A stretch of 64,000 nt of DNA, taken from positions 22,431 through 86,430 of IMG/VR virus record IMGVR_UViG_3300020444_000002, one strand, 5' to 3'. Of the stretch, positions 9,120-63,208 are shown piece by piece. Made by a program: the position numbers and the translations under genes. The stretch's first letter is position 1. Every line of letters begins with the position of its first letter. A model generated the notes under the pieces. It searched no databases. It was not told where the DNA came from and worked only from the letters and a program-made list of their open reading frames with translations. This DNA is from a virus.

Positions 9120-10493
9120 CTAGCTCACCTGTTCTGTAGAGTCTGTTTGTGTACCAACAATCTGCTGTATTTCTTCTGGTGTAGCACCAGTCTCTTTGAG
9201 CGCTACTGTCAAAGCATCTTCATCTGTTATTTCTGGCTCTAGAGTAGGCATGCCAAGCCCGGCTAAATCAATTTCACCAAGCACAAACTGCGTTGCAATC
9301 TCTTCCTCGTACCCTGAACTGATTAGGGTCATCTTGAGTGTGAGTTGTGCTTGTGAAAGCTCTACTTCCTTCATCTTATTGTCATAGTCTGTTGATAGTG
9401 GGTTGTGTAGTGCAATCTCGTATCCATTGCTTGTAAAATCATCTGGATAATAACGCTTATAATCCATGTTAAGCGCACCAATTAGCTTTTTCACTAGTGG
9501 CATAATAGCGTTCTCGGTGAAGTCATCCTTCTGTACGCGAGCTGTTTCACGGCCAGTTCCACTTTGGTCTAGGCCTAGCTGGTTCTTGCTCGTACCACCA
9601 ATAGCAATAAGCTGGTCACGGTTATTGCCATTAACGTCTGTTAGAGCAGATTTGTTAAGGTCGATACTTGTATCTGTATAAGCAATAGCGCCTTTACCAT
9701 TACTAAAAATAGGCTCTCCCTGCGTATGTTCTAGGACACGCCGTTTGAAGTTCTCGAACTCGTGGTCCTCCATAATGACATCTGACGTTATGAGGCCGGG
9801 AGCATTAATGTTGTTACGAATAGATTTGCGCTGGTAGTCTGCGGCCTGCTTGAGAACAAACTGAGCATCACTTGCTGCATCGCCCATACTGAACGACTTC
9901 TTGCGATCTACTGGGTTAGTCTTTATAACTGGGATAATCATTTGTACTGGTATTTCACGTTGCATACCATCACGGCTTTCAATATAGCCACCAAGTTCAC
10001 CTTCCGTGTTGAATACACGTCTAACCTGATACGGGTTAAGGATTTCAAAGTTCTTCACATTACCTACCCTTGTATAGCCGTTGCGCATTTTGCTGGTTCC
10101 GATGCCGCGAACAGCAAGAACGTAAAAGACCCCCTCTAGGTCCATATAACGCGAGTACTCATACCAAAAGTCCTCTGCTGTGAAATCAAGGGAATCGTTA
10201 ATAAGTTTAAGATATGGGTGTTCTGCTTGCCTACCGTCCTTCTTAGTAGACTTCGTGTAGGTATATCCTGTCCCAAGTTCTACTGCACGGTTAGCTCGAC
10301 GTTCGATAATAGCGTAGCCATAACCTGTGTACAAGTCCTCATCAGATAGCACTGGGTCATCTATATTTAAGCCCATCTTAGGGCGAGCGCCAAACCGAAG
10401 AAATTCGTTGGCTAGTGTTGAGTTGTTTTGCTTTTCAATGCTTGGCGCTGTGAGCGCTCTTACCGCATTTCTAACGCGATTGAGTGGGTTCAT
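9120..10493 (-). CDS. Portal protein (HK97-like)
   Basis: 457 aa downstream of TerL; portal-like segments (DLEG.FYV, LNPYQVR, N..APGLI, F.ENAI.P). Confidence 0.85.
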   Translation of the reverse strand: MNPLNRVRNAVRALTAPSIEKQNNSTLANEFLRFGARPKMGLNIDDPVLSDEDLYTGYGYAIIERRANRAVELGTGYTYTKSTKKDGRQAEHPYLKLINDSLDFTAEDFWYEYSRYMDLEGVFYVLAVRGIGTSKMRNGYTRVGNVKNFEILNPYQVRRVFNTEGELGGYIESRDGMQREIPVQMIIPVIKTNPVDRKKSFSMGDAASDAQFVLKQAADYQRKSIRNNINAPGLITSDVIMEDHEFENFKRRVLEHTQGEPIFSNGKGAIAYTDTSIDLNKSALTDVNGNNRDQLIAIGGTSKNQLGLDQSGTGRETARVQKDDFTENAIMPLVKKLIGALNMDYKRYYPDDFTSNGYEIALHNPLSTDYDNKMKEVELSQAQLTLKMTLISSGYEEEIATQFVLGEIDLAGLGMPTLEPEITDEDALTVALKETGATPEEIQQIVGTQTDSTEQVS

Positions 10494-10829: not shown

Positions 10830-11230
10830 CTAAAAACCCAACGAGGTGCGTTGGGCTAGCGGTTACAAACAAGGGAAGTCAGCCTGTAACACTTAGTTCT
10901 GAATCTATTACTATTATAGCACACGGCAAATAGCCCCTCTTTTTACACTATGAAACAGCCAGGGTTTGTACTAGTGCATTACCCGCAATGGGTGGGGGCG
11001 TAAGCCGTTTTGACCCGAACCAAGGCAAAAAGCCAAATTCGCTTATGGGTCTTATTGTCAAAGTGCTAATGGATTTTCACCATTGCGGTGTAAAGCAGGA
11101 GTTTACGATACTCTTAAAACGTTGAGCCTGATTCTAGATTCTTTTCCCTGCCCTAGAACGCCAGGTCGCTTCCCTACAGGCGCACCAATGGTATTGATAC
11201 GATTCAGAACTTTTTATTTTATATGTTCTA
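10830..11230 (-). ncRNA. Candidate large structured ncRNA between terL and portal
   Basis: No credible ORF; TATAAT at about 11236-11241; long-range pairings (10895-10905/11201-11211; 10983-10991/11080-11088); terminator CCCAACG/CGTTGGG followed by T-run. Confidence 0.6.
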
Positions 11231-11272
11231 TTACAATTATACCTTATTCGGTTTTTGCAGGTTGTTGGGAAC

Positions 11273-12688
11273 TTATACCCCAATGCGGTTTAGGTTATGA
11301 GCAGGGTCTTTTATTTTGCCATGGACAGTACTGTGCTTTCTCACTGCTATAAAGAATGAATCTGCATAATCCGGCGAGCGGCCGAGAATTTCTTTAATTT
11401 TTTCTTTCTTTGTCACTTTTTCAACACCGTCAACCATATCCGTATCGTGCGCACTTATCTCTCTCCACAGCTCATCCTCATTACCCCTATACGCATCCTT
11501 CTGGAATATTTGTATCTCAGCATCTTCTAGTGCCCGGCGAGCGTTTAGTGCAGTTTCGTTACGACTTTTACCTGTAGCTACATACTCGTCGATATACCAA
11601 CCTAACAATTTCATGTTGTCACGCATGCTAGTACCGACACCATTACATTCAATACTGATATGGTGGGCGTATGCTTTTGTGAAGCCCTTGCTTTCTGCCC
11701 AAGCTATCAACTGTTGCGCGAAGAGATACCCAATAGGTCTAGAGTCAACTTCACTGCTTTGGCCGTAAGTCCTCTCTGGTATTTTTAGCTCGCGCTGTTC
11801 CATAACAATATCATCTTCAATAAGGGTTGCAACACAAGCGTCACCACCACCATCACTCACATCCACTCCAATCACTTTGTTAAATTTAGTACGGGTGAAT
11901 TTAGGGATAATATTACCAACTTCGTTGCGTTCTGGTTCGGGGAGGCGGAAGATACTAGCTCTTTCCCATAGGTAACCTTTAATAAGCGCATGGTCTTCGT
12001 CGAGGTAGTTCCAGTTGTTGCGTAAGTAGCGTTCAACCCACCACTTCGGCTTACTACGAATGAGAGAATTAATATCTTTATCTGACTGCCAGCTATCCTC
12101 TAGGGTGAACTCAATCACCATAACATTGCTTGGTAGCTGGCCCTTCTTCCATTTATCATAGTAACGGTTTTTAGCCCATCCATTATTTGGGTTCATGGTG
12201 TGGATATTTATACTCGGTTGGCCTTCCTGGTTAGCACGCCCCTTACGAGACATAATCATATCGGCCGCATCCTCAATTAACTCGTTCGACTCTTCCAGTT
12301 GGTTAGCAGTAATATCAAGACCCTTAATTTTGTTTTGGTCTTTGTCGGTGCTAGAGTCTGCCTGCGCAAAAGTAATGAGGCTCTTATTGGGGAATTCTAT
12401 TAACAGCGAACCTTCATTAAGCTTGTAATGCTTATCCTCAACCATATTCATGTCTGACATCATCTTCTTATAGGTGCGCCAGATTGTCTTACGCGCCGTG
12501 TTGAAGTTCTTACGCCATACAAATAGCTGCGAATGGGGGAAGGCTTCCGCTATAGATATGAACACATGAGCCGTTAAGGCACTCTTACCTGTACCAGTTG
12601 GTCCAATTAGAATAATCTCATCTATTTCTGGACGAGTGTTTATAATATCTATTACCGACTGTTGCTTAGGCTTGAGTTGTAGAGTCAT
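11273..12688 (-). CDS. terL: Terminase large subunit
   Basis: Walker A GPTGTGKS, Walker B-like QLEES, TMNP coupling motif, nuclease GVDV and RSPDYADS. Confidence 0.93.
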   Translation of the reverse strand: MTLQLKPKQQSVIDIINTRPEIDEIILIGPTGTGKSALTAHVFISIAEAFPHSQLFVWRKNFNTARKTIWRTYKKMMSDMNMVEDKHYKLNEGSLLIEFPNKSLITFAQADSSTDKDQNKIKGLDITANQLEESNELIEDAADMIMSRKGRANQEGQPSINIHTMNPNNGWAKNRYYDKWKKGQLPSNVMVIEFTLEDSWQSDKDINSLIRSKPKWWVERYLRNNWNYLDEDHALIKGYLWERASIFRLPEPERNEVGNIIPKFTRTKFNKVIGVDVSDGGGDACVATLIEDDIVMEQRELKIPERTYGQSSEVDSRPIGYLFAQQLIAWAESKGFTKAYAHHISIECNGVGTSMRDNMKLLGWYIDEYVATGKSRNETALNARRALEDAEIQIFQKDAYRGNEDELWREISAHDTDMVDGVEKVTKKEKIKEILGRSPDYADSFFIAVRKHSTVHGKIKDPAHNLNRIGV

Positions 12689-21460: not shown

Positions 21461-22945
21461 TAATCTCTCCACCACCAAATATGTGGGCTTAGGACATCAT
21501 CCTTAACCTCATAGTGGCCATCTACCTTCCAATCATCCCAAGAGTCAAAGTCGTCATCACCGCGTGTTGGCGGTCTGAACCCTGGCTCAGTCTCAATAAT
21601 GACGGCATTCTGTTTTTCAATGATGCTTTTAATGGTAGCTGGTTGGTCGTGATACCAGATTTTTCTACCAGGCAACGCCTCACGACTCTTTTTGTCGAAC
21701 CAATTACTAGGATGCTCGCTATACTCGTCGATCAATCTATCAAGATTCTTCATAACGCGCTGTGGTTCACGCCCAAATACTTCTACAAGCGGTACGCCAT
21801 CAACGATAATTTTCCCGACCACACTCTTACGAATCTCATCACCGCTCAGTTCTGATTCTTTCTCGTAGTTACTACTCTCTATCTGAATATCAATCAAACG
21901 GCGGAAACCGTCAAATGGAACTATGCTGCCAGATGGTCGTCTTAAATAGATATTATTGTCTCGGCGACTATGTGGAAACTGGCCAAAAATTAAATCTCCT
22001 TCCGCCACAGTATCAAACGCTTTAGCGTCTGCTTGGTCGCCTACTCCCCATTGTTCGCTCATTTATTATCCCCTCGTAGGAGTGCTTTCTCCAAAAGAAG
22101 CTTCTCCAGTTAATTGTTTTGTTAATAGTTTTCTTATATCTATGCCACTTTCCTCGGCTTTAGATAACGCACCCCTTAAAGACACGCACATCTCTACAGC
22201 ACCCCAAGACTGACAATCCCAACCAGTGTAGTCACAACTACCATTGACATACGCATAAGTGTGGTCTTTCATAGCGACAACCCAATGGAATTCTGGTCCA
22301 TCATTCTCTCCTTGCAAGTAAGCAAGTACATAGGCTACATCTTCTAATGCGAAGCCCTTTGTGTCCGTAATGGCATAATTCATTGCTGATGATAGGTCAT
22401 AATCTATACGACGTTCTATACAGTCAGTCTCGTGGTCGTAATAATAACTCATCTACGCACCCCAAGCCCATTTCACCAGCCAAACAATACCGACTATGAC
22501 TGTTATCCAAAATACTGCAATAAGCGCTAGCATACCAAACCATACAGCTAACACAATAGCCAGCGCTTGTTTTTGGTGCTTAGCCTCAAAAATTTCTCTC
22601 TTAGTTCTTTTGTTCATATTATACCCCTTATGTTTTAATTATATTCTTTTTTAGACGAAAAAGCAATGTTTATTCACTCATATCGACCTTCCAATAAATA
22701 CTACAAATTGTACACCACTGAGTGATATCATCACCAGAAGGTGTGTGTTGGACACTCTTCCAAGCATTGGGGAAAGCGCTATGATAGCAATGCGCTTTGT
22801 TTATGCAATCTCCAAGCTTCTTATTGCTAGTCGCTTCTATGTTCCAGCCAATAAATTCATAGCCAGAACGCATAAGATTCTCTTCTTCCGGCGGAATTTC
22901 TCTATACGGTCTTTCTTCTATTTTTGTAGAATATGGTGATTTCAT
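21460..22945 (-). CDS. Hypothetical proteins (21460-22062, 22066-22452, 22670-22945)
   Basis: Co-oriented ORFs; no function recognised. Confidence 0.6.
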
Positions 22946-29779: not shown

Positions 29780-29890
29780 TTTTGTTCCCTCAAACAAAAA
29801 GCTCCGACAGTGAGGGCTGTGGAGCTTCTATATTTCTATTTTAACAGACACCCCCATGTCTATTTCAATTATAACCTTTTTAGGTTTTTT
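29780..29890 (-). promoter_or_regulatory. Promoter plus structured 5' leader of HNH gene (copy 2)
   Basis: Homologous to 5425-5530, with covarying loop/RBS (CCCTCA/TGAGGG). Confidence 0.7.
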
Positions 29891-38819: not shown

Positions 38820-40106
38820 CTATTCAACTTTTCCTTCTTCTTCCATATCAAGGGTACCATCGGCAACTGCTTGGTTGTCATGACCAACAAATGTCGCACT
38901 CTTGCATTTAAGTGTAAATGGAGCAATCCCCTCTGCGCGAATTACTACGCCCTCATCACATGGAGTATCTTTATCTAATGGGACAGCCTGTGGATAGCCG
39001 TCCTCTTTATATCTATGTAGTGTTTCATGGCCAGCAAAGTCAGCCCATTCTTCTGGCTTGAAGTCTTTATATTTCCCCCTCCACAGCAACGGAACAACCT
39101 TTAAATCACGGTCGCGACAAAACTCTACAATCTGGTCGTAACTCATGTCCAAAACAACACCCTCTGGGTTAATTGTTGCAACACGATACACATATAGCTC
39201 TGCAAGACCCTGTGGCACTTGGTATGTGTACTTACTCTGCAATGGCGCACCGTCAGCAGTCCAACCAACTAGTTCCCCATAAACAAGATAGCCTTTTGGA
39301 ATCTTACCAACCAGTTTCTCTCCCTCTGTAGACCAAATATCAGTATCATAGAAGTGAACATGAGTAGGGTTATTTTTATCTTTAATAACTCTACGGCTAC
39401 CGTACACATAATCATACTCCCTGTCTACAACAGTTACACCGACCTTATGTGCAATCTTTTCGAGACGCGATAACTTACGGTGAACAATCGTATTGGCGAT
39501 ACGAATTGAAGTACCGTGCAACTTCTGTGTAACTGTTACTTCTTTTTCCTCCGGGATTACATGGCTATACTTGAAGTAATTATCTGTATCATAGTGTTGT
39601 GGCAGGAACTTTTCATCAACACGGCTAAATATTTTTTTGTTCTTTTCTAGCACCCTCTCTTTATGCGTGCGCTTACGAACAAACTTACGGCAGATTTCAT
39701 GGTCGCCAATACGGTCAAAAGTGTCACCCTCTTTGAATTGCGATAAATCTAACCTTTTAATATAAGACAACGAATCAAGCCCGACAATTAGCGCATCTGA
39801 ACGATGCCCGCGCAATTTTAGTGAGCGAACATGACGGTTGTCCTCTAGGTAGCCAGATTGTGACTGGTCTTCGTTTTTGTCGTTATGGCGGTGCAGGTTA
39901 TTCCTGTAGGCAAATTCCTCAGATAATTGCGTACCAGCAGTGAATACTAATGCAAGCTCTCCATAATCAGAGTCTTTAGCGACAAGAGCCTGGCTTCCCA
40001 GCACTTGAAGACCTACAAGGTTGTCTAGACCTTCTAGGGCCACAGGTGACGGCAAGCGCACTATAACACCTGCGTAATCTTTGTTATCCGGTTCAAGTAA
40101 TTTCAT
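38820..40106 (-). CDS. RNA ligase (Rnl2/DRB0094-like) with N-terminal OB-like domain
   Basis: Motif I QKLHGTS, YGE, EGVV, LKCKS; adjacent to Pnkp. Confidence 0.82.
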   Translation of the reverse strand: MKLLEPDNKDYAGVIVRLPSPVALEGLDNLVGLQVLGSQALVAKDSDYGELALVFTAGTQLSEEFAYRNNLHRHNDKNEDQSQSGYLEDNRHVRSLKLRGHRSDALIVGLDSLSYIKRLDLSQFKEGDTFDRIGDHEICRKFVRKRTHKERVLEKNKKIFSRVDEKFLPQHYDTDNYFKYSHVIPEEKEVTVTQKLHGTSIRIANTIVHRKLSRLEKIAHKVGVTVVDREYDYVYGSRRVIKDKNNPTHVHFYDTDIWSTEGEKLVGKIPKGYLVYGELVGWTADGAPLQSKYTYQVPQGLAELYVYRVATINPEGVVLDMSYDQIVEFCRDRDLKVVPLLWRGKYKDFKPEEWADFAGHETLHRYKEDGYPQAVPLDKDTPCDEGVVIRAEGIAPFTLKCKSATFVGHDNQAVADGTLDMEEEGKVE

Positions 40107-53653: not shown

Positions 53654-53950
53654 ATGAATTATATAGACGAGGTTAAAGAAGAGCTGTTAAAACATTGCAA
53701 AATTGGCAAGGGTCTACAAAATGTATACGCACTACTTGTACTGGTCAAGGGAGAGGAAACTACCCTAGAAGATGTACACGACGCATGGGCTGTAAATATA
53801 AATCAGACCTGGGACTTTGCTAAATACGGCAACCACCGTTCATTAATAGCGTTTGATTACCTCACAGAGGAGGTGCAACAAAAAGACCAACACTACGTTG
53901 ACGCCATCCATGCAACTGCTCGTGCTTTGAGAACCAAAAAAGACCGCTAG
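53654..53950 (+). CDS. Conserved phage hypothetical protein
   Basis: YALLVL.KG..TT.EDVHDAW...QQKD..Y. Confidence 0.6.
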   Translation: MNYIDEVKEELLKHCKIGKGLQNVYALLVLVKGEETTLEDVHDAWAVNINQTWDFAKYGNHRSLIAFDYLTEEVQQKDQHYVDAIHATARALRTKKDR

Positions 53951-54045
53951 CTATGCGGTCTACAACTGCGATGTTATGCTCGTTCCTGAGCCTGGACCAA
54001 CATGCTTGGTCTGGAACCGCAGCGGGCAGTTTTTCTTTATATTCT
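53936..54045 (-). ncRNA. Candidate small structured RNA
   Basis: Perfect TTGACA-N17-TATAAT promoter (54048-54076) with no ORF; stems CTGCG/CGCAG, GTTCC/GGAAC, GACCAA/TTGGTC; terminator AGACCGC/GCGGTCT. Confidence 0.6.
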
Positions 54046-54079
54046 TATTATAGTCTTTAGATTTTAATGTGTCAACACT

Positions 54080-54156
54080 TGGCTCGGAAGGTTGGATTTG
54101 AACCAACAACATCCAGCTTCAAAGGCTGGCGACTCTACCAGTTGGTCTACTTCCGA
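54080..54156 (-). tRNA. tRNA-Gln(TTG)
   Basis: CCAGC-CT-TTG-AA-GCTGG; CCA end. Confidence 0.93.
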
Positions 54157-54176
54157 ATATTTGGCGGAAGTCGGAA

Positions 54177-54566
54177 TCAATTCTTCCGACTAGCGTACTT
54201 TTTGCGACGACTATCACTGTAGACCGTTTTACACACCTCACAGCGACAACCTATACGATACCCAGAGGTTCCATGTGTAAACTTACCTTTATTATGTGGT
54301 ATAGCGCCTAAATATCTTTTAGCGGCGCTATTACAGGAGCGGTGGCTGTACGATATATTGTTTATATCAAAATAGAGTAGCACGGGGTTGGGGCTGTCAA
54401 TCCATGGAATAATATGTTCTATAGAAAATGTTTCCCTCGTCATATCTTCATTACAGCGATAGCATTTTATATCTGCGTTTTTAACGAACTCGTATAATAA
54501 ATCTTTTACTAATCTGCCATTAGCAGTGCTTGGGTTCATACCCAATTGTTCTTTCATTTTGTCCAT
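54177..54566 (-). CDS. HNH endonuclease inserted at tRNA-Ser 3' end
   Basis: CYRC...SIEHIIPW...N...SH..CN; paralogue of 62769-63134. Confidence 0.85.
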   Translation of the reverse strand: MDKMKEQLGMNPSTANGRLVKDLLYEFVKNADIKCYRCNEDMTRETFSIEHIIPWIDSPNPVLLYFDINNISYSHRSCNSAAKRYLGAIPHNKGKFTHGTSGYRIGCRCEVCKTVYSDSRRKKYASRKN

Positions 54567-54637
54567 AACAATCCTTTGATGTTTATTTTTGGCTTCTAAG
54601 GACAATTATAACGTAACTCGTTTTTTTGAAATAATTT

Positions 54638-54720
54638 CGGAAGTCGGTGTACTCGAAACACAATGCTCTCACATCACACATCTTAGCAGGATGGTCTAGC
54701 TCCTCGCTAGTTCAGCTTCC
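54638..54720 (-). tRNA. tRNA-Ser(GCT), no encoded CCA
   Basis: CATC-CT-GCT-AA-GATG, long variable arm; last 10 nt duplicated with CCA at 54162-54174. Confidence 0.8.
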
Positions 54721-54723
54721 ATT

Positions 54724-54798
54724 TGGCTCGGAAGGTAGGACTTGAACCTACAACCTTCTGATTCAGAGTCAGACGCCCCACCATTAGGCCACTTCCGA
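54724..54798 (-). tRNA. tRNA-Gln(CTG)
   Basis: TCTGA-CT-CTG-AA-TCAGA; CCA. Confidence 0.93.
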
Positions 54799-54804
54799 TT
54801 ATCT

Positions 54805-54880
54805 TGGGGTGACCGACGAGTGTCGCACTCGCCTCTCCGACTTCACAGGTCGGCGCTTTCACTGGTAAGCTACGGCCAAC
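54805..54880 (-). tRNA. tRNA-His(GTG)
   Basis: CCGAC-CT-GTG-AA-GTCGG; G-1/C73; atypical T-loop TGCGACA. Confidence 0.88.
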
Positions 54881-55024
54881 ATATCTTTTCTGGTTTTTCT
54901 TTTACGTCTATCATAACCAAGCCCACAGACGATACAGTTTACCTCACAACGGTACTTCTTTGTATGTTTTTTATTTAGCGCGAGTATCTTTTTAAATCTT
55001 TTTTTCACTGATACCCTTTCTTTT

Positions 55025-55111
55025 TGGCGGAAGACGAGGGACTCGAACCCTCAAGGGCTATTAACCCCAGCCGCTTTCAAGGCGGTGTCCTCATCCAGCC
55101 GGATATCTTCC
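55025..55111 (-). tRNA. tRNA-Ser(TGA)
   Basis: CCGC-CT-TGA-AA-GCGG, long variable arm, GCCA end. Confidence 0.93.
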
Positions 55112-55123
55112 GTGTTATTAATG

Positions 55124-55207
55124 TGGTGGCGTCAGATGGATTCGAACCATCAGTCCTTACGGACAGGAGGTTTAAGCTCCCTGCGTGAACCGTTTCGCCA
55201 TGACGCC
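55124..55207 (-). tRNA. tRNA-Leu(TAA)
   Basis: GGGAG-CT-TAA-AC-CTCCT; ACCA. Confidence 0.93.
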
Positions 55208-55253
55208 AAAAATGGTGGCTAAGGAGGGAGTCGAACCCTCAATCCTTGCGGCA

Positions 55254-55535
55254 CTAGTTTCTTTTTCTCTTGTGCCAGCCCCTAGAAGCGGAACGTATGG
55301 CGTGACAATTCGCACATACCACTTCACACTTCGCTATCTCGGCTTCTATCTTTTCCCAAGAGTTAAAACACATCGAAGCAACAGTGTTGAGTTTGACAAA
55401 TCCTGGAAGATGGTCAAACTCTAGGGCAACTGAGTTCTTGTTATACCCGCAATCGGCACAACCCCTATCTATCTTGATTTGGGCAATACGTTCTCGGTTA
55501 CGTTCGGCTCTCAGTTTTTCTTTTAGGCTTATCAT
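55254..55535 (-). CDS. Small HNH endonuclease
   Basis: GC.DCG.....ALEFDH...EIAKCEVVCANCH..R; stop codon lies in the 3' tRNA half. Confidence 0.88.
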   Translation of the reverse strand: MISLKEKLRAERNRERIAQIKIDRGCADCGYNKNSVALEFDHLPGFVKLNTVASMCFNSWEKIEAEIAKCEVVCANCHAIRSASRGWHKRKRN

Positions 55536-55683
55536 GTTTTTTCTTTTGGTGGCGCTACTCAGACTCGAACTGAGATGAGCTTTCGCTCGCTTGCTTCTAA
55601 GGCAAGTGGGTCTACCAATTCCCCCATAACGCCACATTTTTAGGTTACTATTCCAATTATAACCTTTTCCGCTTTTTGTCAAG
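55263..55683 (-). mobile_element. 421-bp cassette: promoter + intact tRNA-Leu(TAG) + HNH gene
   Basis: Lies exactly between the two tRNA halves. Confidence 0.8.
55547..55633 (-). tRNA. tRNA-Leu(TAG) (cassette-borne)
   Basis: CTTGC-CT-TAG-AA-GCAAG; variable arm; ACCA. Confidence 0.93.
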
Positions 55684-55721
55684 AAAACTAGCGTGTATAC
55701 CATTCCACCACTCAGCCATTT

Positions 55722-55807
55722 TGGTGTGTCTGCTCGGATTTGAACCGAGATGAGCCGAAGCTCGGCAGGGTTTGAGCCTGCTGGGTCTACCGTTCCCCCA
55801 CAAACAC
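55722..55807 (-). tRNA. tRNA-Leu(CAA)
   Basis: GCAGG-CT-CAA-AC-CCTGC; ACCA. Confidence 0.93.
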
Positions 55808-55812
55808 ATATT

Positions 55813-56409
55813 TTACTTTTTGTTTGACCTAGCCAATAATGTAGCTCGTATCTTTGCTCTTGTTTCTTCTGGCATATTCTTGCCCTTCAGCCATGTTGTT
55901 TTGCCTTTTTTAGCCTCGGACATTTTTCTCTTGGTTTCATCGGAGTGTTTTCGCCCAGTGAATGAACCAACTAACTCACCTGATGCATATTTCTTCCTTA
56001 TCGTAACTCTACGTTTTTCGATAGCCTCAAGTGTCCGCACGCCGTTCATGTTTCTATTAACATGACCACGGTTCTTGCCACCCTTGGAGCGGAACTCACT
56101 GTTCGGTTGTAGAGCATTTATATATTCCCAACCGCCACTGCCACCTTCATGTAGGTTGTACTCTGGCTTTAAGAGCGCTATTAGTTTAATCTCCTCTGCG
56201 AGCATATCTGTTTCTTTATCAAAATCAAACAATATTTCTTTTTTAAAGTTCTCAAGCCCGTATTTAGCTTGTGCATGCTTCAAGTACTTACCAGAACCCA
56301 TGTATTTGTCGTTTACATTTTTCGTTCTGTGGCAGCCTATATAGGTTTTGCCGTTTATTTTATTGGTGATTTTATACACCAAATAGTGTTTTTGTGTTAC
56401 AATTTCCAT
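55813..56409 (-). CDS. GIY-YIG homing endonuclease with NUMOD3 repeats (Seg-like)
   Basis: VYKITN.INGK.YIG, YMGSG, YNL, GRKHSDETKRKMSEA. Confidence 0.92.
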   Translation of the reverse strand: MEIVTQKHYLVYKITNKINGKTYIGCHRTKNVNDKYMGSGKYLKHAQAKYGLENFKKEILFDFDKETDMLAEEIKLIALLKPEYNLHEGGSGGWEYINALQPNSEFRSKGGKNRGHVNRNMNGVRTLEAIEKRRVTIRKKYASGELVGSFTGRKHSDETKRKMSEAKKGKTTWLKGKNMPEETRAKIRATLLARSNKK

Positions 56410-56524
56410 AGAACCTCTTTGTGTTGATTTAAGCGTTAGACAGAGGGGTTCTTTTGTGTTAGAATAACCCTCTAGTCTAATTATAACGCTTTAGGTTTTT
56501 TTGGAATAAATTGTAAATAATTTG

Positions 56525-56595
56525 AGCTGCGCAAGGGAATCGAACCCTTGTGATTCGCTTTGCAGGCGAGCGCCTAGCCACTCGGCCAACGCAGC
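56525..56595 (-). tRNA. tRNA-Cys(GCA), no encoded CCA
   Basis: TCGC-CT-GCA-AA-GCGA; U73 followed by CAA. Confidence 0.9.
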
Positions 56596-56604
56596 ATATT
56601 TTTG

Positions 56605-56680
56605 TGGTGGCGTCGGCTGGACTTGAACCAGCGACTCAGAGCTTTTCAGGCTCCAGCTCTACCGACTGAGCTACAACGCC
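56605..56680 (-). tRNA. tRNA-Phe(GAA)
   Basis: GGAGC-CT-GAA-AA-GCTCT; ACCA. Confidence 0.93.
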
Positions 56681-56686
56681 ATAATT

Positions 56687-56764
56687 TGGTCAGAGCAGCA
56701 GGATTCGAACCTGCGGTCTCTCGCGTCCAAGGCGAGCATGTTGGCCTGGCTACACCACACTCTG
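56687..56764 (-). tRNA. tRNA-Pro(TGG)
   Basis: CTCGC-CT-TGG-AC-GCGAG; ACCA. Confidence 0.93.
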
Positions 56765-56770
56765 ATAATT

Positions 56771-56845
56771 TGGCTCCGCAGGCTGGATTCGAACCAGCAA
56801 CCTTCTCCTTAACAGGGAGCTGCGCTACCATTGCGCCACTACGGA
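56771..56845 (-). tRNA. tRNA-Asn(GTT)
   Basis: CTCC-CT-GTT-AA-GGAG; GCCA. Confidence 0.93.
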
Positions 56846-56852
56846 ATATATT

Positions 56853-56927
56853 TGGCGGACCGTACGGGACTCGAACCCGTTTCATTTCCGTGACAGGGAA
56901 ATATGTTAACCCATATACTAACAATCC
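56853..56927 (-). tRNA. tRNA-Asp(GTC)
   Basis: TTTCC-CT-GTC-AC-GGAAA; GCCA. Confidence 0.93.
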
Positions 56928-56933
56928 ATATTT

Positions 56934-57007
56934 TGGCAGGCAGTGAAGGTAACGCTCCCTCGTCTGTGGGTTTGGAATCCACTATTCTGCTATTGAACTA
57001 ACCACCT
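56934..57007 (-). tRNA. tRNA-Trp(CCA)
   Basis: GTGG(A)-TT-CCA-AA-(C)CCAC; atypical T-loop; GCCA. Confidence 0.88.
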
Positions 57008-57011
57008 GTAT

Positions 57012-57392
57012 TTGTAAGGCTTTGTTGATTTGTACCTTACTTCACCGATACCTAACGTAACATGTACAGAAGGCTCAAATCGGGAACAAATCCGGCGAGA
57101 GCTTTTGTTGGTACTCTCGTATGAGTGCGATGCCGAGGGGTGTTCGCTTATTCCTTCCTCGACCCTTACTAGTCTAGAGCTAGCAGATACGGCAGCGAAG
57201 CCGTTCTACACAACCATGCAGACGTCTGGCTATTCCAACATCAGTGTACAGAGCGTAGCCATAACCTACGATGTCTTAAACGCGCACGACCACTCGCCAC
57301 CCATCACGGTTTACCAGTCCCCTTGGGGGGTCACTTATAGCCCACTGCTGCTGTCCTACCGTGCCGAAGCCTTGTCCGTCATTGCGCTTATA
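57012..57392 (-). ncRNA. Candidate large structured ncRNA at the head of the tRNA operon (about 380 nt)
   Basis: GC-richer, no credible ORF, several hairpins (CCCC/GGGG, CGTAG/CTACG, ACGGC/GCCGT, CGAGG/CCTCG, CGAGAG/CTCTCG). Confidence 0.6.
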
Positions 57393-57414
57393 TTTATATT
57401 ATACCTAAATTGTT

Positions 57415-57447
57415 AAAGAAAAAGCAACCTCTTTTTAGGAGGCTGCT
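57415..57447 (-). terminator. Intrinsic terminator of attenuator 1
   Basis: AGCAGCCTC-CTAAAAA-GAGGTTGCT then TTTTCTTT. Confidence 0.85.
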
Positions 57448-57482
57448 CGGAGGTTTTTGTTTTCTATACTACACTGAGAAAA

Positions 57483-57560
57483 TTATGTCCGAGCGCCAAC
57501 CAAAAAGCTATCTGGATTCCAGAGCTGTGACGGCTGATGTTGTGTACATAATTCACTCAT
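57483..57560 (-). CDS. Leader peptide 1, MSELCTQHQPSQLWNPDSFLVGART
   Basis: ATG 6 nt after TATAAT (TTGTGT-N17-TATAAT); 3' end overlaps the antiterminator arm. Confidence 0.85.
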   Translation of the reverse strand: MSELCTQHQPSQLWNPDSFLVGART

Positions 57561-57610
57561 ACTTCTATTATACACCATCGTGTTTTAAAACACAAGCGTT
57601 TTTTCAATTT

Positions 57611-57634
57611 TGGTGACCGTTAGAAGATATGCCC
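57611..57634 (-). pseudogene. Internally deleted tRNA remnant
   Basis: GGGCATA-TC-TTC-TAACGGT fused directly to CACCA. Confidence 0.5.
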
Positions 57635-57637
57635 ATA

Positions 57638-57723
57638 TGGTGGCGCAGGAGGGAATCGCACCCACTCGACCCGAAGGACTGGTTTTACAGACCAGCTCGT
57701 CTGCTTTAACGAATTACTACGCC
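57638..57723 (-). tRNA. tRNA-Tyr(GTA)
   Basis: CTGGT-CT-GTA-AA-ACCAG, long variable arm, ACCA. Confidence 0.9.
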
Positions 57724-57729
57724 ATAGTT

Positions 57730-57804
57730 TGGTGACCTATGTGGGAGTTGAACCCACCTCTACAGCTTGAAGGGCTGTTATCCTTTCCGATAGACGAATA
57801 GGCC
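57730..57804 (-). tRNA. tRNA-Glu(TTC)
   Basis: ACAGC-CC-TTC-AA-GCTGT; ACCA. Confidence 0.92.
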
Positions 57805-57812
57805 ATGATGTT

Positions 57813-57836
57813 AAAAAATCGCCTCTTGGGGCGACT
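57813..57836 (-). terminator. Intrinsic terminator of attenuator 2
   Basis: AGTCGCC-CCAAGA-GGCGATT followed by T-run, just 5' of tRNA-Glu. Confidence 0.8.
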
Positions 57837-57865
57837 ACGGTTTTGACAAAAAGAAGAAGCCCCTG

Positions 57866-57910
57866 CTAAGAGTTATATTCTTCCTCGTAATAGCTTACTG
57901 AATTTGTCAT
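57866..57910 (-). CDS. Leader peptide 2, MTNSVSYYEEEYNS
   Basis: ATG 6 nt after TATAAT (TTGCGT-N17-TATAAT); TAT TAC GAG GAA GAA TAT run. Confidence 0.88.
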   Translation of the reverse strand: MTNSVSYYEEEYNS

Positions 57911-57998
57911 ACTACCATTATAACGTATTAGCCAAAATAACGCAACATTTTTATTAAAACGCTCTTGTTTTTTAATGCAACTTGCTTCATAATTAATA

Positions 57999-59102
57999 GT
58001 GAACATAAACAGGGGAAATAAGTTGAAAGAAAAACCGCTAAATATAAACAGCTACTACAGTAAAGTAGTTGGTGTAACATTTGAGGGCCGTCAGGATGTT
58101 ATAGGACTTATGGACGGTAGTGAGCAGTTGCGGTTCCGTCGAGAGCCAGAAAACGAATATGACAAAAATGCTGTTGCGGTTGACGCTCTTGTAACACATG
58201 TAGCGCCAGAACCAGAATGGCTTACTATTGGTTACATTGCAAAAGACAAAAACAAAGAGCTGGCAGAAGTACTTACTGATGGCAAATATGCTTCCATAAA
58301 AGTGAGTGATATAACGGGTGGTGGAGACAAGAGTTTCGGGGTTAATGTTCATATTGAACACGAACGAATAATCAAAAAACACCGTTCTGAAAATGCAGTT
58401 TTAGTAAAAGACTTTTTTGGCAATGAAATATTCTACAACCCTGTCGCACATGAATATACAAATGCACTAGGTGAAGTCTACCTTTCGGGGAGTGCCTATG
58501 CATCAGGTGAAGAATTTGATAGTGAATTCTGGGCCAAGAACACCGTTGACCGTTACAACCTACCAGATGAAGTAAAAGCTCAAATAATAGATATGTGGAA
58601 TATAAACGGTGAAGCGAGCCGCAGCTTCGGGACTGCTGTTCACGCAGCAATCGAACTTTATGGGAAGTACCGAGGGCTGGCAAAAGTTATTGACACAGAC
58701 TTAAAGACAAAAAAACGCAAAATGCTTGACTCTAAGACAGAGAAAAACTCTGCACTAAGTAAAATACCCTATTTAAGGGACGCAACCCTAAAATTCTTTA
58801 ACAAAGAACGTGCAGAAGAAAAAGCGGTTTATGAGGTGCTAGTAGTTGACCATGAACATAAACGCGCTGGTCGTATTGATCGTCTGGTGATAAAGGATAA
58901 CGGTACATTTGAGGTTCGGGACATGAAGACGAACTTTAAGCTTCCAAAAAAAGAGAGAGACGGCTACCAAAAGCAGCTAAGCTTCTACGCCGATATAATA
59001 TTAGCGAACGGTGGAACTCTTGGCGACAACCCAATAATGCTGCATCACTGGAAGGATGGAGAATGGGTCGATGTAAAGCTAGGAAAGATTGATACATTAT
59101 AA
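57999..59102 (+). CDS. HIRAN domain fused to PD-(D/E)XK exonuclease
   Basis: VVGVTF..RQ...REPENEYDKNAVAV...IGY; GTAVH..IE, AGRIDRL, DMKT, QLSFY. Confidence 0.85.
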   Translation: MNINRGNKLKEKPLNINSYYSKVVGVTFEGRQDVIGLMDGSEQLRFRREPENEYDKNAVAVDALVTHVAPEPEWLTIGYIAKDKNKELAEVLTDGKYASIKVSDITGGGDKSFGVNVHIEHERIIKKHRSENAVLVKDFFGNEIFYNPVAHEYTNALGEVYLSGSAYASGEEFDSEFWAKNTVDRYNLPDEVKAQIIDMWNINGEASRSFGTAVHAAIELYGKYRGLAKVIDTDLKTKKRKMLDSKTEKNSALSKIPYLRDATLKFFNKERAEEKAVYEVLVVDHEHKRAGRIDRLVIKDNGTFEVRDMKTNFKLPKKERDGYQKQLSFYADIILANGGTLGDNPIMLHHWKDGEWVDVKLGKIDTL

Positions 59103-62751: not shown

Positions 62752-62770
62752 TGGTGGGGCTGGAAGGACT
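62752..62770 (-). pseudogene. Orphan tRNA 3' end
   Basis: AGT-CCTTC-CAGCCCC-A-CCA overlapping the HNH stop codon. Confidence 0.7.
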
Positions 62771-63134
62771 ACTTACGTTTCGCAGTCTCCATAGCCTTTG
62801 CAGCCCTACACACTCCACAACGACAGCCATAATTCCTGTAGGTAGCAAGATTGTGTTTTTTGGGGTAGGTTCTTTTACTTTTTCGAGCATCCTTGATATT
62901 ACAAAGAAGATGGCTATACGCAATATTATCTATACTGAAAAATAACTCAACTGGGTCATCGCTATTTAGCCAAGGTATAATGTGTTCTATAGAGAATGTT
63001 TCCCTAGTTAATTCGCCACCACAACGATAACATTTATGACCAGCTTTAATAGCGAAATCAAATAGTAAATTCTTTAATAGACGACCTTGTGCCGTGCTGG
63101 GATTCATACCCAGTTGCGCTTGTTTTGTGTTCAT
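62769..63134 (-). CDS. HNH endonuclease (paralogue of 54177-54566)
   Basis: QLGMNPSTA.GRL, KCYRC, TRETFSIEHIIPW, NI.YSH..CN. Confidence 0.85.
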   Translation of the reverse strand: MNTKQAQLGMNPSTAQGRLLKNLLFDFAIKAGHKCYRCGGELTRETFSIEHIIPWLNSDDPVELFFSIDNIAYSHLLCNIKDARKSKRTYPKKHNLATYRNYGCRCGVCRAAKAMETAKRK

Positions 63135-63208
63135 AACTATCCTCAGATGTTTATTTTTATCTCTAAGAACAATTATAACCTTTTTAGGTTTTGTCAAATA
63201 AATCTATA

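Follow-up and report, generated by a model that had tools for sequence, protein, structure and literature searches.

A predicted HNH endonuclease cassette interrupts a phage tRNA-Leu(UAG) gene in the anticodon and carries a divergent tRNA-Leu(UAG) of its own

Homing endonuclease genes are thought to persist where they are harmless, that is between genes, or within elements that splice themselves out (introns and inteins), and a few proteins whose genes were split reassemble. According to the accessible text of one report, the phage endonuclease SegB cuts inside tRNA genes (PMC13096335). In intronless homing, as the available part of a second source describes it, the target of a free-standing phage endonuclease is the sensitive allele that a competing genome has of a nearby gene; after the cut, the endonuclease gene is copied in together with the resistant allele (PMC2988022). 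The same part of that source describes free-standing endonuclease genes that have split protein genes, with mobE in nrdA of phage Aeh1 and mobA in T4 gene 60/39 (PMC2988022). Here we describe a locus in a 64,000-nucleotide stretch of viral DNA (positions 22,431 to 86,430 of IMG/VR record IMGVR_UViG_3300020444_000002; this whole stretch is called the window below). A resident tRNA-Leu(UAG) gene is interrupted within its anticodon by a 421-bp insert that holds a promoter, a second complete tRNA-Leu(UAG) gene and a small gene for a predicted HNH endonuclease. In our reading the insert is probably the cassette of a free-standing homing endonuclease, whose probable target gene it interrupts; a divergent replacement tRNA would make up for the loss.

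The locus resembles that of SegB in phages T4 and T6, where a nuclease gene with its own promoter lies in a phage tRNA array and its presence varies between related phages (PMC2988022 and PMC13096335, in the portions of both that were accessible). SegB, however, is a GIY-YIG enzyme encoded between genes, whereas the HNH cassette lies inside a tRNA gene, and the presumed resistant allele has not taken the place of the sensitive one, which persists in two pieces on either side of the cassette. As in intronless homing, a resistant allele would travel with the nuclease gene. Like mobE and mobA, the cassette places a free-standing endonuclease gene in a functionally critical part of its host gene without an intron or intein; in those systems, however, the two polypeptides reassemble into a working enzyme (PMC2988022, accessible part). 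A tRNA cut in its anticodon cannot reassemble in that way, and its function would therefore be supplied by the second complete gene in the insert. The synthetic HomeR drives follow the same logic, since their nuclease element sits in the target gene that it cuts and brings a cleavage-resistant rescue copy (PMC7968924, accessible part). The comparison with HomeR is our own; HomeR is engineered and uses Cas9 in Drosophila, whereas for the phage cassette we infer target cleavage and drive. Integrative elements also use tRNA genes as insertion sites and restore tRNA function with element-borne sequence. One phage attB site has its edge in a tRNA-Leu anticodon loop, according to the part of the source that was available (PMC3706429). 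Unlike integrative elements, which bring an integrase and a duplicate of the displaced 3′ part of the tRNA, the cassette has neither and carries a whole separate tRNA gene. We know of no split tRNA genes of the archaeal kind in phages. In the part of the literature that was searched, no endonuclease cassette that lies within a tRNA anticodon and contains a nested isoacceptor is described.

The phage is uncultured, and the window is part of an 86,430-bp virus record. We called tRNA genes with ARAGORN and RNA families and introns with Rfam, and compared proteins with PHROG, Pfam and PDB profiles; the split gene was rejoined by coordinates in a script and the product was submitted to ARAGORN. All features of the locus lie on the minus strand of the window, as does every one of the 17 tRNA genes that ARAGORN calls in it (23 in the whole 86-kb record). 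The related loci (L numbers) and public sequencing runs (X numbers) are introduced where they are used. The parts of the locus are:

55684-55717, minus strand: 5′ half of the resident tRNA-Leu(UAG), bases 1-34 (acceptor strand GGCTGAG, D-arm, 5′ anticodon stem CTAGT, loop TTT).
55213-55262, minus strand: 3′ half of the resident tRNA-Leu(UAG), bases 35-76 (AGAA, stem ACTAG, long variable arm, T-arm, acceptor strand, ACCA).
55263-55683, minus strand: insert of 421 bp between anticodon bases 34 and 35, missing from the same slot of L025 and L229 and with its junctions crossed in runs X6 and X7.
55656-55682, minus strand: promoter, with TTGACA at 55682-55677, a 15-nt spacer and TATAAT at 55661-55656.
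55547-55633, minus strand: nested (cargo) tRNA-Leu(UAG), complete and with CCA encoded (ARAGORN tRNA-Leu(tag), 87 nt; Rfam tRNA, 54.4 bits).
55254-55535, minus strand: 93-amino-acid (aa) open reading frame (ORF) of a predicted HNH endonuclease (PHROG 2255 at 3.1e-23 and PHROG 3106 at 5.1e-22, both annotated as HNH endonuclease).

The resident tRNA is broken exactly between anticodon bases 34 and 35, and no base has been lost or gained. When rejoined, the halves form an 84-nt gene that ARAGORN calls as tRNA-Leu(tag); the split gene itself is not called in the intron mode of the program. Coordinates and program thus agree with an initial annotation of this DNA, made from the letters alone, which had described a tRNA-Leu interrupted between these two bases by 421 bp. 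A join one base leftward would give the anticodon AAG. Other phage contigs have intact tRNA-Leu(tag) genes of the same length, 84 nt, and to these the rejoined gene is up to 88.1% identical. Its acceptor stem pairs at 7/7 positions (one G-T) and its anticodon stem at 5/5, and the 3′ half has the T-arm GAGGG/TTCGACT/CCCTC, the acceptor strand CTTAGCC, the discriminator A and CCA; it is the sole orphan T-arm within the tRNA arrays of the record. Every stem of the resident halves still pairs and we saw no sign of decay. The gene starts at 55717, three bases and one T past the CCA of tRNA-Leu(caa).

Two related loci carry this gene uninterrupted. The first, L025, represents a complete phage of 99 kb that has terminal repeats (L052 and L230 are the same contig); it has in common with the window a neighbouring 269-aa ORF at 55% identity. 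The second, L229, is a metagenome contig of 8.4 kb. On the minus strand of L025 the genes for Leu(caa) (11185-11099), Leu(tag) (11095-11010) and Leu(taa) (11006-10923) are directly adjacent, and L229 has the same tRNA order in a compact array without any endonuclease gene. The split gene of the window lies between the corresponding neighbours:

55722-55807, minus strand: tRNA-Leu(CAA), upstream neighbour (ARAGORN), syntenic in L025 and L229.
55124-55207, minus strand: tRNA-Leu(UAA), downstream neighbour (ARAGORN), 90.5% identical with the L025 orthologue and 94.0% with the L229 orthologue.

The D-arm of the L025 tRNA-Leu(tag) is identical to that of the resident 5′ half, and the resident 3′ half aligns with the tRNA-Leu(tag) of both relatives. 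Over its whole length the rejoined gene is 79.1% identical with the orthologue in L025 and 74.4% with that in L229; the functional tRNAs of the three arrays span 64-94%. Because the same slot is uninterrupted in L025 and L229, the split state is derived. The intact anticodon loops of these alleles read TTTAGAA and CTTAGAA, and their core TTAGAA gives the anticodon TAG; the insertion point is therefore unambiguous, T34/A35. The initial annotation had advised a search for related phages with the uninterrupted allele and had asked whether that allele has another anticodon, such as AAG; both relatives have it in the same slot of a syntenic array, with TAG. Presence of the cassette thus varies at one locus among related genomes (absent from L025/L230 and L229). 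Exact scans of IMG/VR with the 5′ half and with the 3′ half gave 0 matches each, and thus no phage that shares this resident allele in split or in intact form. Against an annotated phage collection, megablast found no close relatives, a distant blastn search matched the neighbouring GIY-YIG gene alone, and tblastn with the neighbouring 269-aa ORF returned one Latilactobacillus phage only (34.5% identity).

At least nine public runs, from several studies, hold the stretch. X6 (a run of another study) and X7 (a run of another sample) have two contigs here, one of 1263 nt over 54900-55601 and one of 732 nt over 55628-56000, with 0 differences each; the gap between them, 55602-55627, falls inside the nested tRNA. 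Both junctions are crossed in these independent assemblies, and an assembly artefact at the junctions, a concern of the initial annotation, is therefore excluded. No form lacking the insert was found among the DNA or RNA contigs. One joint in X6/X7, 55241 to 55692, was considered as an empty allele and rejected: it has 31 foreign letters between 21-nt sides, and its minus strand is the tRNA-Leu(CAA) of another organism.

The insert is compact. Outside the tRNA and the ORF only 49 + 11 nt are left, its junctions have no direct repeat, and within the 421 bp the HNH ORF is the sole gene assigned from the ORF list and PHROG, with no integrase. The TTGACA/TATAAT promoter reported at the outset has both hexamers in perfect form, but its spacer is short, 15 nt against the canonical 17; a consensus promoter scan omits it because of this short spacer. 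As a 27-mer the promoter occurs once in the window (0 expected). It belongs to a family repeated in the genome, with further members at window 63197, 5531 and 29877, all with AAAAGGTTATAATT. Members of the family (window 63197, 55682, 5531 and 29877, minus strand) have TTGACA (degenerate at 29877), 14-15 nt ending in AAAAGGT, then TATAATT and similar first transcribed bases. The same promoter family is found in L025, just past tRNA-Leu(taa) and ahead of another HNH gene.

The nested tRNA scores 54.4 bits against an Rfam gathering score of 29 and has a cloverleaf with the conserved tertiary bases, a type II variable arm, the discriminator A and CCA. It is only 69% identical with the rejoined resident gene, and the description of a complete and divergent tRNA-Leu(TAG) in the insert is borne out by ARAGORN and Rfam alike. 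Its anticodon arm is unlike that of the resident at 5 of 17 positions and the flanks differ more. Among the loci fetched, the body of the nested tRNA is nearest to the tRNA-Leu(caa) of the lineage (77% to L025), and all 17 nt of its anticodon arm are shared with the L229 tRNA-Leu(tag). It is the sole intact tRNA-Leu(tag) of the record and the sole reader of CUN codons among its 23 tRNAs, and in 22 long ORFs, which have 628 Leu codons between them, the share of CTA is 22.6%.

The ATG of the HNH gene lies 11 nt past the nested tRNA. Its last two codons and its stop codon TAG (55256-55254) are supplied by the resident 3′ half, and the 3′ junction falls exactly between two of its codons; ORF coordinates and PHROG matches are as expected from the 93-aa HNH gene with a stop in the resident 3′ anticodon stem that had been noted initially. 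Residues C26, C29, D41, H42, C74, C77 and H78 are kept across 10 aligned relatives, and the PHROG matches together with these motif residues place the ORF, as a predicted member, in the HNH endonuclease superfamily. A PDB profile search returned the HNH endonuclease 4h9d at a non-significant E of 0.51. There are 21 relatives in IMG/VR, at 36-64% identity, and 7 of their 21 loci have tRNAs within 3 kb. Elsewhere in the family the ATG also lies directly behind a tRNA, at 3 nt in L012 and 8 nt in L020, and the ORFs of L012 and L015 extend into the tRNA that follows. A 120-aa HNH of the same family (32% identity) sits between tRNA-Val and tRNA-Met in the relative phage G001 (L231 1432-1794), and its stop codon overlaps the tRNA-Met anticodon loop. 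Judged from sequence, the cassette appears to have the testable features of a free-standing homing endonuclease, namely presence that varies at a locus and no intron or intein to house it. An intein is impossible here because the host gene is an RNA gene.

Insertion between bases 34 and 35 is the classical position of group I introns in tRNA-Leu, and a test for an intron was therefore needed. Rfam reported no intron in 55200-55730 at E up to 10 and none in 53900-58000 at E up to 1. The same Intron_gpI model recognised four interrupted phage tRNAs that served as positive controls (L210, 93.1 bits; L058, 67.2; L102, 56.6; L145, 52.7). The insert shares with tRNA-Leu anticodon-loop group I introns, including the phage examples L058 (whose intron carries a 223-codon open frame) and L145, the insertion after U34. 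Unlike them it has no Rfam core and no room for one, and it has its own promoter, a nested tRNA and unspliced RNA contigs. The 5′ exon ends in T (55684) and the last base of the insert (55263) is A, not the G that a group I intron requires. The insert is not a recognisable group I intron, since it lacks both an Rfam catalytic core and the terminal G, and the view that no self-splicing intron is involved agrees with the negative Rfam result and its four controls.

Other interrupted or unusual tRNA loci were seen in the course of these searches. In L069 (7049-7858, minus strand) a tRNA-Leu, apparently UAA, is broken after U34 by about 730 nt that end in G and contain no ORF of at least 100 aa. 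L102 has two different tRNAs (577-844 and 11129-11403) with similar anticodon-loop inserts of about 190 nt, and Intron_gpI was found at E up to 0.01 in the second only. In L145 (7777-8239) a GOLLD RNA (Rfam, 201.8 bits) lies inside the phage tRNA array with a tRNA nested within it.

RNA contigs were available from X8 and X9, two RNA runs of one single study. A contig of X8 is unbroken from 55633 to 55083, and X9 contigs cover 55110-55421 and 55414-55709, with the reservation that RNA libraries may carry DNA. Contigs of both runs cross the 3′ junction unspliced, although rare forms drop out of contigs; past the 5′ junction the X9 contig extends 26 nt only, and neither X8 nor X9 has RNA cover beyond 55709. 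The joined resident form (55684 to 55262) is not listed among the X8 and X9 RNA contigs. The X8 contig begins exactly at the first base of the cargo tRNA (55633), and another contig at that of tRNA-Ser (55111), each after 7 unmatched letters; this is a weak hint of processing, as contigs cannot show RNA ends.

These data bear on the possibility that the insert is removed from the RNA, either by an unrecognised ribozyme or by cutting followed by rejoining with a phage RNA ligase, so that two tRNA-Leu(UAG) species would be made. The phage does encode an RNA ligase (428 aa, window 38820-40106, minus strand; PHROG 968 at 6e-89), in the same genome as the large tRNA array, and both tRNA halves are undecayed and perfectly preserved; for these reasons we keep RNA-level rejoining as a rival of low probability. 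Three further points speak for it: the position is the one used by the introns of L058 and L145; Rfam also missed the long insert of the L069 tRNA-Leu(UAA), which makes the negative Rfam result good, not absolute; and a rare spliced RNA, like a rare empty allele, could escape the contigs. The preservation of the halves fits a recent insertion or refreshment by homing, yet equally a retained function. Against removal, however, no intron model matched even at E up to 10, the insert consists almost wholly of promoter, tRNA and ORF and ends in A instead of G, and the RNA contigs are unspliced over the 3′ junction with no joined form reported. Nor do we know of a pathway, in bacteria or in phages, by which ends of this kind would be trimmed precisely. 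We consider removal at the RNA level highly improbable.

Replacement of the resident gene by the nested one is the reading that we prefer. The cassette, consisting of a promoter of the lineage type, a divergent tRNA-Leu(UAG) and an HNH gene directly behind it, would come from the tRNA array of a related phage, where the HNH gene would have sat directly behind its own tRNA-Leu(tag). By analogy with other free-standing phage endonucleases, the HNH protein would cut intact resident-type alleles in or near the anticodon arm. The nested tRNA would be its resistant partner, and would escape cutting because of the differences in its anticodon arm and flanks. The resident and nested alleles would be too unlike for ordinary repair within the gene, and we therefore propose one illegitimate repair event that set the donor segment exactly at the break; this may explain its clean position, with base 34 of the resident tRNA-Leu(UAG) on one side and base 35 on the other. 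The resident gene would then be dead, and the nested tRNA, expressed from the cassette promoter or by read-through, would take over. The split allele would be immune because its own site is destroyed, and the split form could later spread by ordinary homing, for which the tRNA halves and the flanking tRNA genes would serve as homology arms. Gene replacement, and not splicing, would thus offset the damage to the target.

A selfish element that relies on gene replacement had been the central proposal of the initial annotation. It is partly supported, by the derived state of the split, the absence of a recognisable intron, the absence of a joined form among the RNA contigs and the position of the nested tRNA as the only CUN reader. 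The transfer of the cassette as a unit and its continued mobility we infer, because the cassette is a single instance among the genomes and loci searched. Somewhat more tentative still is the proposal of a natural home-and-rescue element, in which the HNH cassette homes into position 34/35 of the tRNA-Leu(UAG) of competing phages and brings a recoded, cleavage-resistant rescue tRNA; we offer it as a possibility.

The array that holds the cassette contains other endonuclease genes. Two more HNH genes, a pair of 142-aa paralogues from a different family (PHROG 23251), lie at tRNA ends in the same array, each behind a promoter. The first (54605-54177) sits behind a tRNA-Ser(GCT) at about 54720-54638 that ARAGORN does not call; the 10-bp end of this tRNA, CCGACTTCCG, recurs past the insert at 54174-54165, and CCA follows the second copy only. 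L025 and L229 have an intact tRNA-Ser(gct) in the slot of 54165-54720. The second (63197-62769) follows tRNA-Lys(ctt), and its promoter is a member of the cassette's promoter family; the letters after the stop codon of this gene, which end in CCACCA, resemble the 3′ end of an orphan tRNA (window 62752-63205). In addition, a GIY-YIG/NUMOD3 gene is found between tRNA-Leu(caa) and tRNA-Cys. None of these endonuclease genes occurs in L229; those of L025 are different ones at other places. Endonuclease genes evidently have free play in this array, and the cassette studied here is its sole endonuclease insertion that cuts a tRNA in the anticodon and carries a tRNA.

The composition of these neighbours raises the question of whether the 421 bp arrived as one cassette. 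A promoter with the HNH gene and, separately, the tRNA might have entered in two steps, or a promoter-tRNA unit might have been captured later. The two other HNH cassettes of the array consist of promoter and HNH gene only, and the promoter, as a repeated element of the lineage, could mediate recombination, both of which would suit a stepwise origin. Such an origin would, however, take two independent events within 421 bp, the first of which would leave the phage without a tRNA-Leu(UAG). Moreover, a tRNA followed directly by an HNH gene of the same family recurs in L012 and L020, which suggests that the pair was already linked in the donor. We give a two-step origin very little credence and retain the entry of a single cassette.

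We surveyed split tRNAs in 231 sources (1,987,877 bases and 2,414 called tRNAs, some of them duplicating the window and the L025 contig). This gave 27 candidate pairs; the 12 with a span above 200 nt were inspected, and the other 15 span 115-184 nt. Two of the 12 were false (L064 and L133), two were the window itself (window and L001), and eight were interrupted tRNAs of other contigs. The initial annotation had suggested looking for further promoter-tRNA-HNH units within split tRNAs of the same anticodon. Among the inspected interrupted tRNAs only L056 has a nested tRNA and resembles such a unit; its anticodon arm is missing and its isotype cannot be assigned. There (9618-10154, minus strand), a 5′ fragment (acceptor strand and D-arm) and a 3′ fragment (T-arm, acceptor strand and CCA), with acceptor strands that pair at 7/7 positions, enclose a 128-aa HNH ORF and a complete tRNA-Asp(gtc), and the HNH stop codon lies inside the tRNA-Asp. 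Rfam reported no intron in L056, which may be another such case that has decayed.

We also scanned with the D-arm, a motif that proved generic for tRNA-Leu. There were at least 120 matches; 117 of the 120 listed lie in called tRNAs and three are orphans (L069, L132 and L122, the last at the edge of its locus). A further D-arm scan gave 83 matches in called tRNAs and one orphan (L169). L132 (800-818) has a 5′ remnant of a tRNA-Leu, made up of acceptor strand and D-arm, that joins the start of the following tRNA directly.

Several observations weigh against an active, mobile cassette. At 93 aa the HNH protein is the shortest of 22 family members (the others have 112-259 aa), and it is without the N-terminal zinc-ribbon region present in 6 of 10 aligned relatives. 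It matched no Pfam family, HNH models included, and no Shine-Dalgarno sequence or other obvious ribosome-binding site is visible ahead of its ATG. IMG/VR holds no HNH relative closer than 64% identity, and the loci fetched hold no cargo-like tRNA above 77%. A 30-mer of the cargo had 0 exact matches in 185,579 prokaryote genomes, which thus gave no host source, and no second copy of the 421-bp cassette was found in IMG/VR, the fetched loci or the prokaryote genomes. The HNH gene may accordingly be an inactive remnant. The cassette would then have arrived as proposed and the nested tRNA would have taken over, and the locus would now be a frozen rearrangement, comparable with the tRNA remnants in other phage arrays such as L132 and L056. 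The catalytic and zinc-binding residues are intact, however, the ORF is open, the resident halves are undecayed, and the closest relatives of the HNH protein (L004-L006) likewise have no zinc ribbon. A dead scar of this kind is, in our judgement, unlikely, and less so than either RNA-level removal or stepwise entry; the disruptive cassette with its own replacement tRNA continues to be our preferred reading.

Two observations concern the tRNA genes of the record at large. The linear record (G000 C1) has tRNA genes at both ends, six at 646-1147 and 17 at 76510-86203, and the array may continue across its ends. Rfam also finds a tRNA at window 56937-57007 (minus strand, 40.2 bits) that is absent from the ARAGORN list.

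If the proposed reading is true, a cassette that breaks an anticodon and brings a complete, divergent substitute would be a different solution to the persistence of homing endonuclease genes, and a natural counterpart to drives that have been engineered on the home-and-rescue principle. Homing endonucleases would have, in addition to introns, inteins and intergenic sites, a fourth means of residing inside an important gene. It would also provide a concrete mechanism for the exchange and turnover of isoacceptor alleles in phage tRNA arrays, and exchange of tRNA alleles matters for escape from host defences that target tRNAs.

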